A stretch of DNA of 64,000 bases from Escherichia coli (GCF_003334315.1 NZ_QOWR01000009.1); one strand, 5' to 3'; counted from the first letter of the stretch, positions 42,136-50,076 are shown. The notes: a model not told the origin generated them from the sequence alone. Translations and numbers: made by a program.

Positions 42136-42328
42136 TATTCCCCTCTCCAGTTAATTATTGAGAATAATTATTACTTCACCTGATAAGCTGCGGATATCAC
42201 ATTCCTAACCGCAGCTATTTGTGAATCTTTTCACAGTTTAAATTCCCCCGCACGCTTAGCCTTAATATCAGTACATTATTATTTACTAAACGCTCGCCTT
42301 AATTACCTATAGCATTAAGGAAGATCAC

Positions 42329-45038: not shown

Positions 45039-46049
45039 TCATTTCTTACGCGCGTATTTCAGTGAATCCAGCGCTACGGCGAAGATAATAATCGCCCCTT
45101 TGATGATATACTGCCAGTATGGGTTTACGCCGATATACGTCAGGCCATAGTTGATGACGGTAAAAATAATTACCCCGGTCACCACGCCAATCACCGTCCC
45201 CACACCGCCGCTGAACGATACACCGCCTACCACGCACGCCGCGATAGCATCCAGCTCATACATAAAGCCGAGGTTGTTGGTGGCAGAGCCGATACGTCCG
45301 GCTTCTAACATCCCGCCAAAGGCATAGAACACGCCAGACAACGCGTAGATCATCAGCAGGTTCAGGCCGACGTTGACACCAGATACTTTTGCCGCTTCCG
45401 GGTTACCGCCAATGGCAAAAATGTTCTTACCGAAGCGGGTTTTGTTCCACAACACCCAGACGAACGCCACCGCAATCAACGCGTAGAAGGTGATGTAAGA
45501 GAGACGGAAACTCCCCAGCGCGACAAAGCCCTGAGCAAAGGTAGAGAAGCCACTGTCAAAACCAGAAATTGGCGACGCCCCGACAAAGTCGTAATAGAGC
45601 GAGTTGATGCCATAGACGATGATCATCGTGCCGAGCGTGGTAATGAACGGCGTCACGTTGAGATAAGCGATAATCAGACCGTTGATCAAACCGATCACCG
45701 CACCAATGGCACAGACAATCAGAATAACCAGCGCAATCGGCATCGTCGCCATTTCCGGGAACACTTTGTTGGCGTTATCCATGGACTGCAATAATGTCGC
45801 AGCCACCACTGCCGCCAGCCCTACCTGACGACCAGCAGAAAGATCGGTCCCCTGGGTGACAATTAACCCTGCCACACCGAGCGCGATAATAATACGCACC
45901 GATGACTGGGTGAGAATATTACTTAAGTTCAACAGACTTAAAAATGTTGGGTCCTGGAAAATAATAATCGCCAGCAAAACTAAAAGAACGACGTAAATAC
46001 CGCCCTCTTTCAGGTAAGTAAGAAAACTTTTCTTATTTAACGCACTCAT
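45039..46049 (-). CDS. mglC: Galactose/methyl-galactoside ABC transporter permease MglC (336 aa)
   Basis: ORF track 45039..46049 (-). Confidence 0.95.
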   Translation of the reverse strand: MSALNKKSFLTYLKEGGIYVVLLVLLAIIIFQDPTFLSLLNLSNILTQSSVRIIIALGVAGLIVTQGTDLSAGRQVGLAAVVAATLLQSMDNANKVFPEMATMPIALVILIVCAIGAVIGLINGLIIAYLNVTPFITTLGTMIIVYGINSLYYDFVGASPISGFDSGFSTFAQGFVALGSFRLSYITFYALIAVAFVWVLWNKTRFGKNIFAIGGNPEAAKVSGVNVGLNLLMIYALSGVFYAFGGMLEAGRIGSATNNLGFMYELDAIAACVVGGVSFSGGVGTVIGVVTGVIIFTVINYGLTYIGVNPYWQYIIKGAIIIFAVALDSLKYARKK

Positions 46050-46064
46050 GGGAAGCCCCTAATC

Positions 46065-47585
46065 TTAAAGGTGCAAAGACGCAAGACGCAGAATTTCGTT
46101 TTGCGTTGTTGTTTTTGTATCGACAATTCCGGAAACGAGACCATTGCTCATGACCAGAATACGGTCTGTTATCCCTAACAACTCAGGCATTTCAGAGGAG
46201 ATAATAATAATCCCCTTGCCTTTCTTCGCCAGTTCGGCAATTAACTGATAAATTTCAAACTTCGCCCCGACATCAATACCGCGCGTCGGTTCATCGAGCA
46301 TTAATATTTCTGGTTGCGTTAGTAGCCAGCGACCAATAATCACCTTTTGCTGATTACCACCGGAGAGCGAACCAATTTGCGTCCGATGACCCGGCGTTTT
46401 TACCCGCATCGAATCAATCACCCACTGGGTATCGCTTTTCATCCGCGAGTTATCCAGTAAACCAACTTTATTTTTGTAGTTGCGAATATTGGAAATTAAC
46501 GAGTTAAAACCAATATCCAGATAGGCATAAATTCCCGTTGAGCGGCGCTCCTCAGTTACCAGTGCAAATCCATGGTTTATGGCTTCGTTGGCATTATGGT
46601 TATTGATCTGTTTGCCGTGCAACGTTATGGTGCCAGCCGATTTCTCGCGAATACCAAATAACGTCTCAACAATATCGGTACGTTTCGCCCCCACCAGACC
46701 GGCAATACCGAGGATCTCCCCTTTATGCAGATCAAACGAGACATCGCGAATCGACGGCTGGCGCAGTGACGTCAGGTTACGTACCTCGAGGATGACTTCG
46801 CCCGGTTTGTTTTCTTTGTCAGGGAAACGCTGGTTAAGAGAACGCCCAACCATCATGGCGATGATCTTGTCCATCGTCAGTCCTGCCAGCGGTTCGGTGG
46901 CGATCCACTGACCGTCGCGCAATACGGTAACTTCATCACATAACTGGAAGATTTCTTCCATTTTATGCGAGATATAAACAATACCGCAGCCGCGCTCTTT
47001 TAATTTACGAATAATAGTGAACAGATGATTGACCTCTTTTTCGGTTAACGAAGAAGTCGGTTCATCCATAATCACAATTTTCGCGTTATAGGAAAACGCT
47101 TTGGCGATTTCGATCATCTGCATTTGCGAAACGGATAATGTGCCGACGCGCGCACGCGGATCGATATCAATATCCAGTTCGTCAAAAATCGCTTTGGTTT
47201 CGCGGTACATTTTGTCCTGATCGACAAACATGCCTTTGGTGGGATATCGCCCCAGCCACATGTTATCCATCACCGAACGTTGTAATACCAGGTTTAACTC
47301 CTGGTGTACCATCGAAATACCATTTTCCAGGGCTTCTTTTGCAGAATGGAAATCGATCTCTTTACCCTGGAATAAAATGGTGCCGGAGTCTTTTTGATAA
47401 ATACCAAACAGGCATTTTAATAATGTCGATTTTCCTGCACCGTTTTCCCCCATTAATGCATGGATAGAATGTGGCCGGACTTTTAAATTAACGTTATCAA
47501 GTGCCTTAACACCAGGAAAGGACTTGTTGATACCGCTCATTTCCAACAAGTATTCCCCGGAGGACGGAGTCGTTGAGCTGACCAT
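46065..47585 (-). CDS. mglA: Galactose ABC transporter ATP-binding protein MglA (506 aa)
   Basis: Two ABC cassettes (GENGAGKST; LSGGNQQKV). Confidence 0.95.
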
Positions 47586-47645
47586 ATAATTTTACCTTGT
47601 TGGCCATACAATAAGGGCGCAGTAATAGACTGCGCCCAATCAGTC

Positions 47646-48644
47646 TTATTTCTTGCTGAATTCAGCCAGGTTGTCTTTATCTACGCCAACATAAGGTACG
47701 CGGACCACTTTGTTGTCGATTTTCCAGTTGGTGCCATCAGCCGCACCTTTACCATCGGCCAGGTTTTTCGCCAGATCAAAGGTCGCTTTCGCCTGGTTGT
47801 TAGCATCGTTCAGTACGGTGCCCGCCAGTGCACCGGATTTCACCAGCGCCAGCGCTTCTGGCAGCGCATCGACGCCAAACACCGGAATGCTGGACTTGTT
47901 GTGTGCTTTCAGCGCTTCAACCGCGCCCATTGCCATCGCATCGTTGTTGGCGATAACCACTTCGATTTTGTTGGCGTTCGGGCCAGACAGCCAGGCGTCC
48001 ATCTTATCTTTCGCCTGAGCGGTGTCCCACATTGCGGTATCTAACTGTAACTGTTCAGTTTTGATGCCTTTATCGTTCAATTCTTTAATCACGTAAGTGG
48101 TACGTGCTTCTGCATCCGGATGGCCCGGTTCACCTTTCAGCAGTACGAACTGAATCTGACCGTCTTTGTTCAGATCCCAACCCTGATTCGCCGCCCAGTG
48201 TTTAGCAATCAAATCGCCTTGAATAATGCCGGACTCTTTGGAGTCAGTGCCAACGTAGTAGGCTTTGTCGTAGCTATCCAGCGCCTTACGAGACGGTTCT
48301 TTGTTGAAGAAAACCACCGGCACGTTTTGCCCACGCGCTTTCTCAATCACCGTACCCGCAGCTGCCGGGTCAACCAGGTTGATTGCCAGTGCCTTCACCC
48401 CTTTCGCCAGCAATACGTCGATCTGATCGTTCTGCTTGGACTGGTCATTCTGAGAATCATTCATCAGCAGCTGAACATCTGGCGCGGCTTTCGCATCTTG
48501 CTCAATAGCCTTGCGCACTACAGACATAAAGTTATCGTCGTACTTATAGATTGTTACACCAATGCGAGTATCAGCAGCGTGTGCAGCGGCACCGAATAAC
48601 ATGCTGGCCATCACAGCAGACAGGGTTAACACCTTCTTATTCAT
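47646..48644 (-). CDS. mglB: Periplasmic galactose/glucose-binding protein MglB (332 aa)
   Basis: ORF track 47646..48644 (-), signal peptide. Confidence 0.95.
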
Positions 48645-48893
48645 GGTATCTCCGGTTTTTCTTATGCAGGGTAGTGCTTGAGATAAATGCTCGGCGGGGC
48701 AGTAGAGTTAATGAAGTGTTACTGAACGCCGAAGCTCACTTTTTAAAATTCGTTCTTCCATGCCCGGTAACGCTCCAGAAAACGGCTTTAATTGTTGTTA
48801 TGACGCTGTTACCTCGGCAAAAGTGATTATTCACTGTTACATACGGGTTACAACGTTAAAACGGTGCAATCATAGCTATCACATTGTTAAGAT

Positions 48894-48909
48894 ACTGTGA
48901 AATCACTCA
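48894..48909. promoter_or_regulatory. Consensus CRP site (TGTGA-N6-TCACA) in mgl/galS intergenic region, with adjacent gal-operator-like half
   Basis: tgtgaaatcactcaca 48894-48909; followed by gattgaaagcggttacat. Confidence 0.45.
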
Positions 48910-48923
48910 CAGATTGAAAGCGG

Positions 48924-49964
48924 TTACATCGCCTGATTTGTTGAGTTAGTGATCGCCGCCGCATTCTGGCGTGTTGCGACAGAATGGCGACGCACTAACG
49001 TCGGCATAAAACAGTGGCTGGCACGAGGATCAATATTGCCTGCTGCCCCCTGCAAGGCCAGTTCGGTGGCTAATTTCGCCATTGAAGCAATGGGATAACG
49101 CACGGTCGTTAATTGCGGGTCGGTGTAACGGGCGATGGGAATATCATCGAAACCGATGATTGAGAGATGTAACGGAATCGCAATGCCATTATCTTTTAAT
49201 GCTGTCAGTGCGCCAGCGGCCATATTGTCGTTATAAGCAAATACAGCGGTAAGTTGTAGATTGCGCCCCAGCAGTTCAACCATCGCCGCCTCACCGCCCG
49301 GCATGTCCGGCGTACCAGCGCCAATCCAGCTTTCCGGCGGAATAATATCCTGCTCTTTCAACGCACTCATCCAGCCTGCTTTACGCATGGCGTCATCTTC
49401 AATGCCGTGGCTGGAAGAAAGATAACCAATACGTTGATGACCGTTATTCAGCAACATGCGCGTCGCCATTCGGGCACCGCTGAGATTATCCAGGCAAACG
49501 CAACGATGGGCGTACCCCGGCACAACGCGGTTGATTAACACCATACCGGGAATGTTATCCATAAATTGCGCCAGTTCATCGTCACTCAATGCTTTTGAGT
49601 GAACAATCAACGCATTACAACGCTGGCGAATTAACACCTCAATGGCGTGACGCTCTTTTTCCGCTTCATGATAGCTATTGCCGATTAGCACGTATTTCTG
49701 ATGCTGCTGAGCGACCAGATCCACCGCTTTTACCAGCGCGCCGAAAAACGCATCAGAAACGTCCATCACCACCACGCCAATGGTGTCGCTAACCTGAGTT
49801 GCCAGCGCCTGGGCATTGGCGTTTGGCCGATAATCCAGCTCACTCACGGCTTTCATTACTGCTTCACGCGTGTCGGCACTGACCAGCGTGCTGTTATTGA
49901 GCACCCGGGAAACCGTTGCCACAGAGACGCCAGCCTGACGCGCTACATCACGAATGGTGATCAT
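48924..49964 (-). CDS. galS: LacI/GalR-family repressor GalS (346 aa)
   Basis: ORF trimmed to [24 protein letters not shown] (HTH). Confidence 0.92.
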
Positions 49965-50040
49965 ATTCACTACCTGTTATGAGATTGCAGTAAATGACTG
50001 CTTGCTGGCGGCTATTTTGTCAGCACTGAATACAGGACTT

Positions 50041-50076
50041 CGTGAATCGAGTCACAGCAATGGAAACGGTTACAGC
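50041..50076. promoter_or_regulatory. Putative CRP-like site and gal operator upstream of galS
   Basis: cgtgaatcgagtcaca (CRP-like) followed by gcaatggaaacggttacagc (palindromic operator-like). Confidence 0.3.

Follow-up and report, generated by a model that had tools for sequence, protein, structure and literature searches.

Promoter architecture and the long 5′ untranslated leader of mglBAC in Escherichia coli

MglBAC is the main glucose/galactose scavenging system of Escherichia coli under carbon limitation, and the mglB control region is among the targets most repeatedly mutated in glucose-limited evolution experiments. In the 64,000-nt stretch of E. coli DNA analysed here (the window), a perfect CRP site is found next to the galS stop codon and some 250 bp from the start codon of mglB. 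This raises the question of whether the mgl transcript carries an unusually long 5′ leader, offering room for post-transcriptional control, or whether further promoters are located nearer the gene, the two possibilities put forward in a preliminary description of the sequence. We are highly confident that the region consists of the mglBAC promoter, with CRP at −41.5 and GalS/GalR at −59.5, and a 218-nt leader that holds a Spot 42 pairing site and is occupied by PhoB at +11 to +28.

A 1-kb query across the site is 100% identical to MG1655 and is present in 5,426 of 5,426 complete E. coli genomes. According to the ORF list and the RefSeq annotation, the genes follow each other in the order mglC, mglA, mglB, galS, then yeiB and folE, all on the minus strand:

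45039-46049, minus strand: mglC (RefSeq annotation)
46065-47585, minus strand: mglA (RefSeq annotation)
47646-48644, minus strand: mglB, start codon ATG at 48644-48642 (ORF list and RefSeq annotation)
48924-49964, minus strand: galS, stop codon TAA at 48926-48924 (ORF list; RefSeq, from the MG1655 record of identical sequence)

Positions 48645-48923 correspond exactly to the galS-mglB intergenic region. RefSeq annotates no feature beneath the mglB leader, and a search of the E. coli genomes for second copies found the leader at one place per genome. The K-12 leader allele (48700-48845) is a minority allele: of the 5,426 E. coli genomes, 1,031 match it at 99% identity or more and the others at 95-99%.

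The promoter and its two regulators

The elements upstream of mglB can be laid out as follows, from the galS stop codon towards the mglB start codon:

48914-48929 (centre 48921.5, −59.5), minus strand: mgl operator, a 16-bp GalR/GalS dyad ATGTAACC.GCTTTCAA (pattern match with one mismatch)
48896-48911 (centre 48903.5, −41.5): perfect CRP site TGTGA-N6-TCACA, TGTGAAATCACTCACA on the plus strand and TGTGAGTGATTTCACA when read on the minus strand
48892-48897, minus strand: −35 position CAGTAT, poor and overlapped by the CRP site
48869-48874 (−12 to −7), minus strand: −10 hexamer TATGAT of mglBp (sequence read)
48862, minus strand: inferred +1 (G) of mglBp, from the annotated −41.5 and −59.5 applied to the measured site centres
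48645-48862, minus strand: 5′ untranslated leader of mglBAC, 218 nt, beginning at this +1 and ending with the base that precedes the ATG
48653-48650, minus strand: Shine–Dalgarno sequence GGAG (sequence position)

The perfect CRP site is real, 2 nt away from the coordinates first given for it (48894-48909). Measured from its centre, the site is 259.5 bp upstream of the first base of the mglB start codon, in good agreement with the ~250 bp initially estimated, and the site begins 12 bp past the galS stop codon, as close to it as had been claimed. That position, near the end of galS and distant from the mglB ATG, could be taken to mean that the site is a chance match or serves galS instead of mglB, a reading which we consider effectively refuted. 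Only 0.10 perfect sites are expected in the 64-kb window against 2 found, a number reached in 0 of 100 shuffles, and the core is perfect in the mglB loci of all 80 Enterobacteriaceae species representatives that make up our comparative set (80/80), a conservation newly described here. The site is followed by a conserved −10 box at the correct spacing, CTATGAT being near-invariant across species, while galS owns a separate CRP-like site upstream (50041-50056). RegulonDB and EcoCyc annotate CRP at −41.5 and GalR/GalS at −59.5 of mglBp, as quoted in the supplement of the Reg-Seq preprint (10.1101/2025.05.13.653802), and the same study recovered the CRP site experimentally as an activator site of mglBp. 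CRP was not enriched at mglBp in a mass-spectrometry pull-down, which the authors attribute to a limit of the method. In glucose-limited chemostats a second mutation, located in the CRP site 17 bp away from those at the operator centre, climbs to ~80% (PMC7863352, PMC12366229), and in vitro mgl is not transcribed when the regulators are absent. The other perfect TGTGA-N6-TCACA sequence of the window (42220-42235, TGTGAATCTTTTCACA) lies between yeiS and preT, ~100 bp ahead of the start codon (42329) of preT, which encodes a dihydropyrimidine dehydrogenase subunit.

An adjacent operator-like half had also been noted beside the CRP site. The adjacent operator is indeed present, but as a complete 16-bp dyad and not as a half-site. 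It agrees with the gal consensus GTGNAANC.GNTTNCAC at 10 of the 12 specified positions, among them positions 3, 5, 9 and 15 reported as genetically critical (PMC5110547), it overlaps the galS stop codon TAA, and it is near-invariant (78 species). The operator of mglB/galS defined by GalR ChIP-chip and 3C, TTGAAAGCGGTTACA(T), corresponds to positions 48914-48928 (PMC5110547); the coordinate offset to the published positions was checked with a second published site, located at 47828-47843. This second sequence, GTGCACCGGATTTCAC, lies within mglB, in the 3′ part of the reading frame, and is listed in PMC5110547 as the in-silico and 3C GalR operator O(mglB), outside the ChIP-chip-inferred sites of that study. 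Derepressing adaptive mutations cluster at the centre of the mgl operator and sweep repeatedly in glucose-limited chemostats (PMC7863352, PMC12366229), where galS loss-of-function mutations likewise derepress mgl. The GalR/GalS footprint at mglBp was missed by Reg-Seq, again for what its authors consider a limit of the method. No further operator-like matches with up to 2 mismatches were found in the leader.

Judged by its sequence, the locus is the annotated mglBp of E. coli K-12 itself: the centres of the operator and the CRP site are 18.0 bp apart, equal to the annotated spacing, and we found no difference between the annotation and the window, whose measured centres fall where the databases put them. 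The sequence analysis shows the sites, how they are spaced and how well they are conserved; the start site and the dependence on CRP and GalS are taken from the literature. The position of +1 rests on the database positions quoted in the preprint supplement (10.1101/2025.05.13.653802); placed at 48862 it lies 7 nt after the TATGAT box and the leader should therefore measure 218 nt. This bears out the first of the two possibilities, a long leader, and agrees with the ~250 bp in print for the mglBAC 5′ UTR of both E. coli and Y. pestis, whose promoters are alike while their UTR sequences are unrelated (PMC3119520).

With a perfect site near −41.5, a poor −35 position overlapped by it and the −10 box at the proper distance, mglBp has the composition of a class II CRP promoter. 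By the usual nomenclature, and going by the position of the CRP site over the poor −35, we assign it to class II; the Reg-Seq supplement calls it class I. In mechanistic terms, cAMP-CRP bound at −41.5 over the missing −35 element would recruit RNA polymerase to TATGAT. GalS, and more weakly GalR, would act from the −59.5 operator to oppose CRP-dependent activation, with galactose freeing the operator. Transcription would then start at ~48862 and produce the 218-nt untranslated leader.

The same module is repeated at the galS promoter, 1.1 kb upstream:

50074-50061, minus strand: galSp operator TGTAACCGTTTCCA (no mismatches to the search pattern)
50056-50041, minus strand: galSp CRP-like site (one core mismatch)

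As at mglBp, the gal operator lies directly upstream of the CRP site and on the same strand, so that the window contains two tandem operator-CRP promoters, and the Reg-Seq supplement (10.1101/2025.05.13.653802) calls the two architectures the same. They differ in the operator-to-CRP spacing (19 bp at galSp versus 18 bp), in the one mismatch of the galSp CRP core and in the distance of ~85 nt between the galSp CRP site and the galS ATG, which implies a much shorter leader for galS. A second, internal galS operator has been published (PMC5110547).

Conservation of the leader and its probable control by Spot 42

The distance between the CRP site and the mglB ATG is 237-268 nt in 79 of the 80 species, a conservation of leader length that is newly described here. 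The exception is Citrobacter amalonaticus S646 (L024:1540-2003), where a ~195-bp insertion in the leader places the CRP site at −461. It is positioned between the conserved block C and the C-rich tract (both described below), from which it appears that the leader tolerates an insertion at this junction; part of it (…GGTGAGCGAGCGCAGTCAACGCACCTGTAAGTTGAAGTATGACGAG…) may be related to an ERIC/IRU intergenic repeat, which it resembles. Leader identity to E. coli averages 0.67-0.68, compared to 0.53 at the four-fold degenerate sites of mglB, which indicates that the leader is under constraint. Across 53 species the Shine–Dalgarno/start region AACCGGAGAUACCAUG varies little or not at all. The leader of Yersinia mglB has a comparable length and an unrelated sequence (PMC3119520). 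We rejected an upstream ORF as the conserved feature, the 17-codon frame starting from +102 having its ATG in only 3 of 53 species.

Two features close to the start site occur in other genera. Many genera other than Escherichia, with loci of the Enterobacter, Kosakonia and Huaxiibacter type (L040, L041, L019, L027 and others), have an inverted repeat, CGCTGA-CTATGAT-GTCAGCG, around the −10 box (~−20 to +1), whereas E. coli reads GTGATAG-CTATGAT-TGCACCG and lacks the repeat; outside Escherichia it could be a factor-binding site or a chance occurrence. In most non-Escherichia genera (L017, L019, L030, L040 and others) the transcript is predicted to begin with a 5′-terminal hairpin, GUUUYAG-NNN-CUGAAAC, from +1 to +17, nucleotides 1-3 being paired in 51 of 79 unique leaders, of the Enterobacter, Klebsiella and Kosakonia type. 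Hairpins of this kind are known to protect mRNA 5′ ends. A stabilizing 5′-terminal hairpin was also considered for the E. coli leader and discarded, as none is stable in Escherichia, Citrobacter or Salmonella. In these three genera the sequence near the leader 5′ end is CUGUAAC, and this gives rise to the direct repeat of TGTAAC to which PhoB binds.

The idea that the leader provides room for post-transcriptional control is borne out by published work in Salmonella, where mglB is repressed through base pairing with the small RNA Spot 42, as demonstrated by reciprocal compensatory mutations, and where an Hfq CLIP peak lies in the mglB 5′ UTR upstream of the Spot 42 pairing site (Holmqvist et al., PMC5207318). 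The pairing site was reported to be conserved in E. coli (PMC5207318); the repression itself, as far as Salmonella is concerned, we take from that work. The corresponding elements in the window are:

48665-48686 (+177 to +198), minus strand: predicted Spot 42 pairing site (duplex prediction)
48673-48666 (+190 to +197), minus strand: pairing core UACCCUGC, predicted to pair with Spot 42 nucleotides 1-8 (GUAGGGUA)

The Spot 42 sequence used is 100% identical to that of the E. coli genomes. Its nucleotides 1-16 form a duplex of −16.3 kcal/mol with the leader, made up of the 8-bp core and a 6-bp extension, an energy that is marginal in that it is matched by a fraction of 0.066 of shuffled leaders. 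A duplex with full-length Spot 42 was uninformative (fraction 0.39 compared to shuffles) and seed-region duplexes were used instead; regions II and III of Spot 42 gave no significant duplex with the leader. Leader residues C192-C194, T195 and C197 show no variation among 53 species, the Spot 42 core is a perfect Watson–Crick complement in S. arizonae, and E. coli differs from locus L043 by a G-U instead of an A-U at one pair of the 8-bp core. As in other mRNAs regulated by Spot 42, a conserved pairing region is located near the translation-initiation region. Pairing there would bring Spot 42, by its 5′ end, to the 3′-terminal portion of the leader, ~20 nt upstream of the ribosome-binding site, and Spot 42 presumably acts in E. 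coli exactly as it does in Salmonella.

In several respects mglB resembles the known Spot 42 targets of CRP/Spot 42 loops. It is activated by CRP and serves sugar uptake, pairing involves the unstructured 5′ region of Spot 42, and in Salmonella the Hfq site lies upstream of the pairing site; it differs in that its regulation was demonstrated in Salmonella, the E. coli pairing being a prediction. As CRP represses Spot 42, the three partners CRP, Spot 42 and mglB would constitute a coherent feed-forward loop, which would curb leaky MglB synthesis at high glucose.

PhoB binding and a promoter-like sequence within the leader

The second possibility raised at the outset, further promoters nearer to mglB, finds no support as far as a constitutive promoter is concerned, since a single weak match is present, though PhoB binds to the same part of the leader:

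48835-48852 (+11 to +28), minus strand: Pho-box-like direct repeat TGTAACC-CGTA-TGTAACA, PhoB ChIP-seq motif TGTAACCCGTATGTAACA
48826-48853, minus strand: weak promoter-like sequence TTGTAA-N16-AATAAT (9/12 match)

PhoB occupancy is known from the literature. Exactly the motif TGTAACCCGTATGTAACA is given for mglB, bound by PhoB in vivo, in Table 1 of PMC10294691, and the ChIP-seq peak of that study maps to position 48839 of the window. PhoB would thus occupy leader DNA at +11 to +28 in addition to the regulators bound upstream of the start site. The mglB box is like those of pstS and phoA in consisting of two TGTAAC/TGTCAT-like 7-mers in direct repeat with an 11-bp periodicity and in being occupied by PhoB in vivo. 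It is unlike them in lying downstream of the known start site, in ending 3 bp and not 10 bp before a −10-like hexamer, and in that no significant PhoB-dependent change of mglB RNA has been reported. The canonical spacing between a Pho box and the −10 hexamer in pho promoters is 10 bp. With its box at +11 to +28, only 3 bp from AATAAT, and no significant change in mglB RNA, the sequence does not conform to a promoter of the pho regulon. Strain E69 (L002) has TGTAACCTATATGT in place of the K-12 sequence TGTAACCCGTATGT within the PhoB box.

A second promoter in the leader, starting near 48819, might nevertheless give rise to shorter mglB transcripts under certain conditions, possibly with the aid of PhoB in phosphate limitation. 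TTGTAA-N16-AATAAT is the only sigma-70-like match in the region 48400-49200, but 1.3 such matches are expected by chance and it reaches only 9/12. Sigma-70 occupancy at the mglB site is more than 2-fold lower in a phoB deletion strain, yet mglB RNA amounts to 1,076 in the wild type versus 772 in the deletion strain and mglB is not among the significantly regulated genes of that study, in which most novel intergenic PhoB sites are poorly conserved (PMC10294691). According to Reg-Seq, one base change near +30 turns the sequence into a consensus −10 and is enough for a new active start site; since the mutation is needed, the wild-type sequence is at most weakly active. The non-canonical spacing of the Pho box also speaks against such a promoter, as does the replacement of the AATAAT hexamer by ATTAAT in most other genera. 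On balance we regard a conditional second promoter as improbable, and retain the long leader transcribed from mglBp as the preferred reading.

Overlapping the AATAAT hexamer is a near-palindrome, AGTGAATAATCACT (GTGATTAATCAC in most genera), at 48821-48835 (+28 to +42), followed by TTTT. A DNA site, a small RNA hairpin and a weak signal for pausing or termination are all conceivable roles for it. The palindrome GTGAtTAATCAC (+28 to +41) was dismissed as an RNA hairpin, being conserved with no covariation beyond that conservation.

Folding of the leader and candidates for a further RNA element

Structure prediction, which had been suggested for the leader from the start, depicts it as globally unstructured. 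RNAalifold returned 3 trivial pairs and no global fold for 53 leaders, and the minimum free energy of the full E. coli leader has a z-score of −1.39. A scan of positions 47500-50000 against Rfam 15 (E ≤ 10) yielded only two spurious eukaryotic matches. With neither a family match nor a conserved covarying fold, the leader does not resemble a cis-regulatory RNA of the Rfam type. Three stretches within it nevertheless attract attention:

48776-48755 (+87 to +108), minus strand: block B, GGAGCGUUACCGGGCAUGGAAG, conserved and complementary to block C
48734-48713 (+129 to +150), minus strand: block C, CUUCGGCGUUCAGUAACACUUC, conserved and complementary to block B
48663-48722 (+141 to +200), minus strand: C-rich, G-poor tract, 21 C and 7 G in 60 nt (sliding-window count)

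Beyond the Spot 42 site, the leader could contain a further cis-acting RNA element, for which the hairpin formed by blocks B and C (+87 to +150), perhaps together with the C-rich tract (+141 to +200), is the candidate. The higher conservation of the leader compared to the mglB four-fold sites (~0.67 versus 0.53) would be in line with this. The two blocks are conserved and can form an imperfect 18-bp candidate hairpin (48713-48776); 83.5% of the cells are paired across 53 species, compared to 40-52% in slid controls. The isolated segment folds as a hairpin in 47 of 49 species (mean z −1.47), the E. coli hairpin has −19.7 kcal/mol (z −2.66), and independent folds from six genera agree on a common B:C hairpin, with the inner stem re-paired by a different sequence in Klebsiella. 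Double-change cells number 20 versus 12.1 in shuffles, of which 3 in 500 reach 20. Against such an element stand the full-leader z-score of −1.39 and the lack of consensus pairs from RNAalifold, which gave 0 pairs even on the B:C segment alone. Within the full leader, B and C pair with an ensemble probability of only ~0.27, pairs with a compensatory change show no excess (6 versus 6.5 in shuffles), the hairpin is absent from S. enterica subsp. arizonae, the alignment reveals deletions in the B:C part of the leader at two loci (L061 and L067), and no Rfam family matches. In view of these predictions the B:C hairpin may be kept as a tentative element. RNase III cleavage of the hairpin was set aside as an explanation, the published mgl site being in mglC and not in the leader.

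The C/G ratio peaks at 3.0 in the C-rich tract, just upstream of the ribosome-binding site, and one might speculate that the tract is a Rho-utilization (rut) site. In favour of this part of the proposal, rho alleles sweep jointly with alleles upstream of mglB in chemostats; the published Rho-dependent terminators, however, map within mglA, within mglC and beyond mglC on its downstream side, none of them in the leader. Altogether a further leader element, setting mRNA stability, protein binding or Rho-dependent premature termination, appears possible but rather less probable than its absence. Slightly more doubtful still is the view that the ~170 nt of leader left unexplained by published work hold a conserved cis-acting RNA element, with the B:C hairpin and the C-rich tract as candidates. 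The 218-nt leader with its Spot 42 site remains the preferred description.

Part of the sequence repetitiveness of the region can be assigned to the elements above. The pentamer GTAAC occurs in 6 copies within 210 bp (48718-48927), compared to ~0.4 expected from the window-wide density. One copy belongs to the operator, two to the PhoB direct repeat and two to the complementary arms (GUUAC/GUAAC) of blocks B and C; the sixth (48808-48812) is absent from the cross-species consensus. Additional GalR/GalS operators were rejected as the source of this cluster, no further operator match being found with up to 2 mismatches.

Among enterobacterial mRNAs, those of ompA, rpoS, flhD and csgD are familiar for long 5′ leaders on which several inputs converge. 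The mglB leader is like these in being untranslated and longer than 200 nt, in having its sRNA/Hfq input close to the ribosome-binding site and in being conserved across genera. It is unlike them in that it has no strong conserved global fold and a single documented sRNA input, and in E. coli it also lacks the stabilizing 5′-terminal hairpin of other genera.

The literature already describes the long 5′ UTR, the architecture of the promoter and its control by an sRNA at the level of the leader, and since CRP activation, GalS/GalR antagonism and the Spot 42 input are established, no new biology is added to them here. If the leader does contain a further element, this could tune mglBAC after initiation, for instance by Rho-dependent attenuation or through mRNA stability, in a manner linked to translation or to the binding of Spot 42/Hfq and independent of CRP and GalS. 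Explaining why a leader of ~220 nt with near-invariant blocks is kept at a near-constant length across Enterobacteriaceae would round off, without altering it, what is known of the regulation of a textbook operon.
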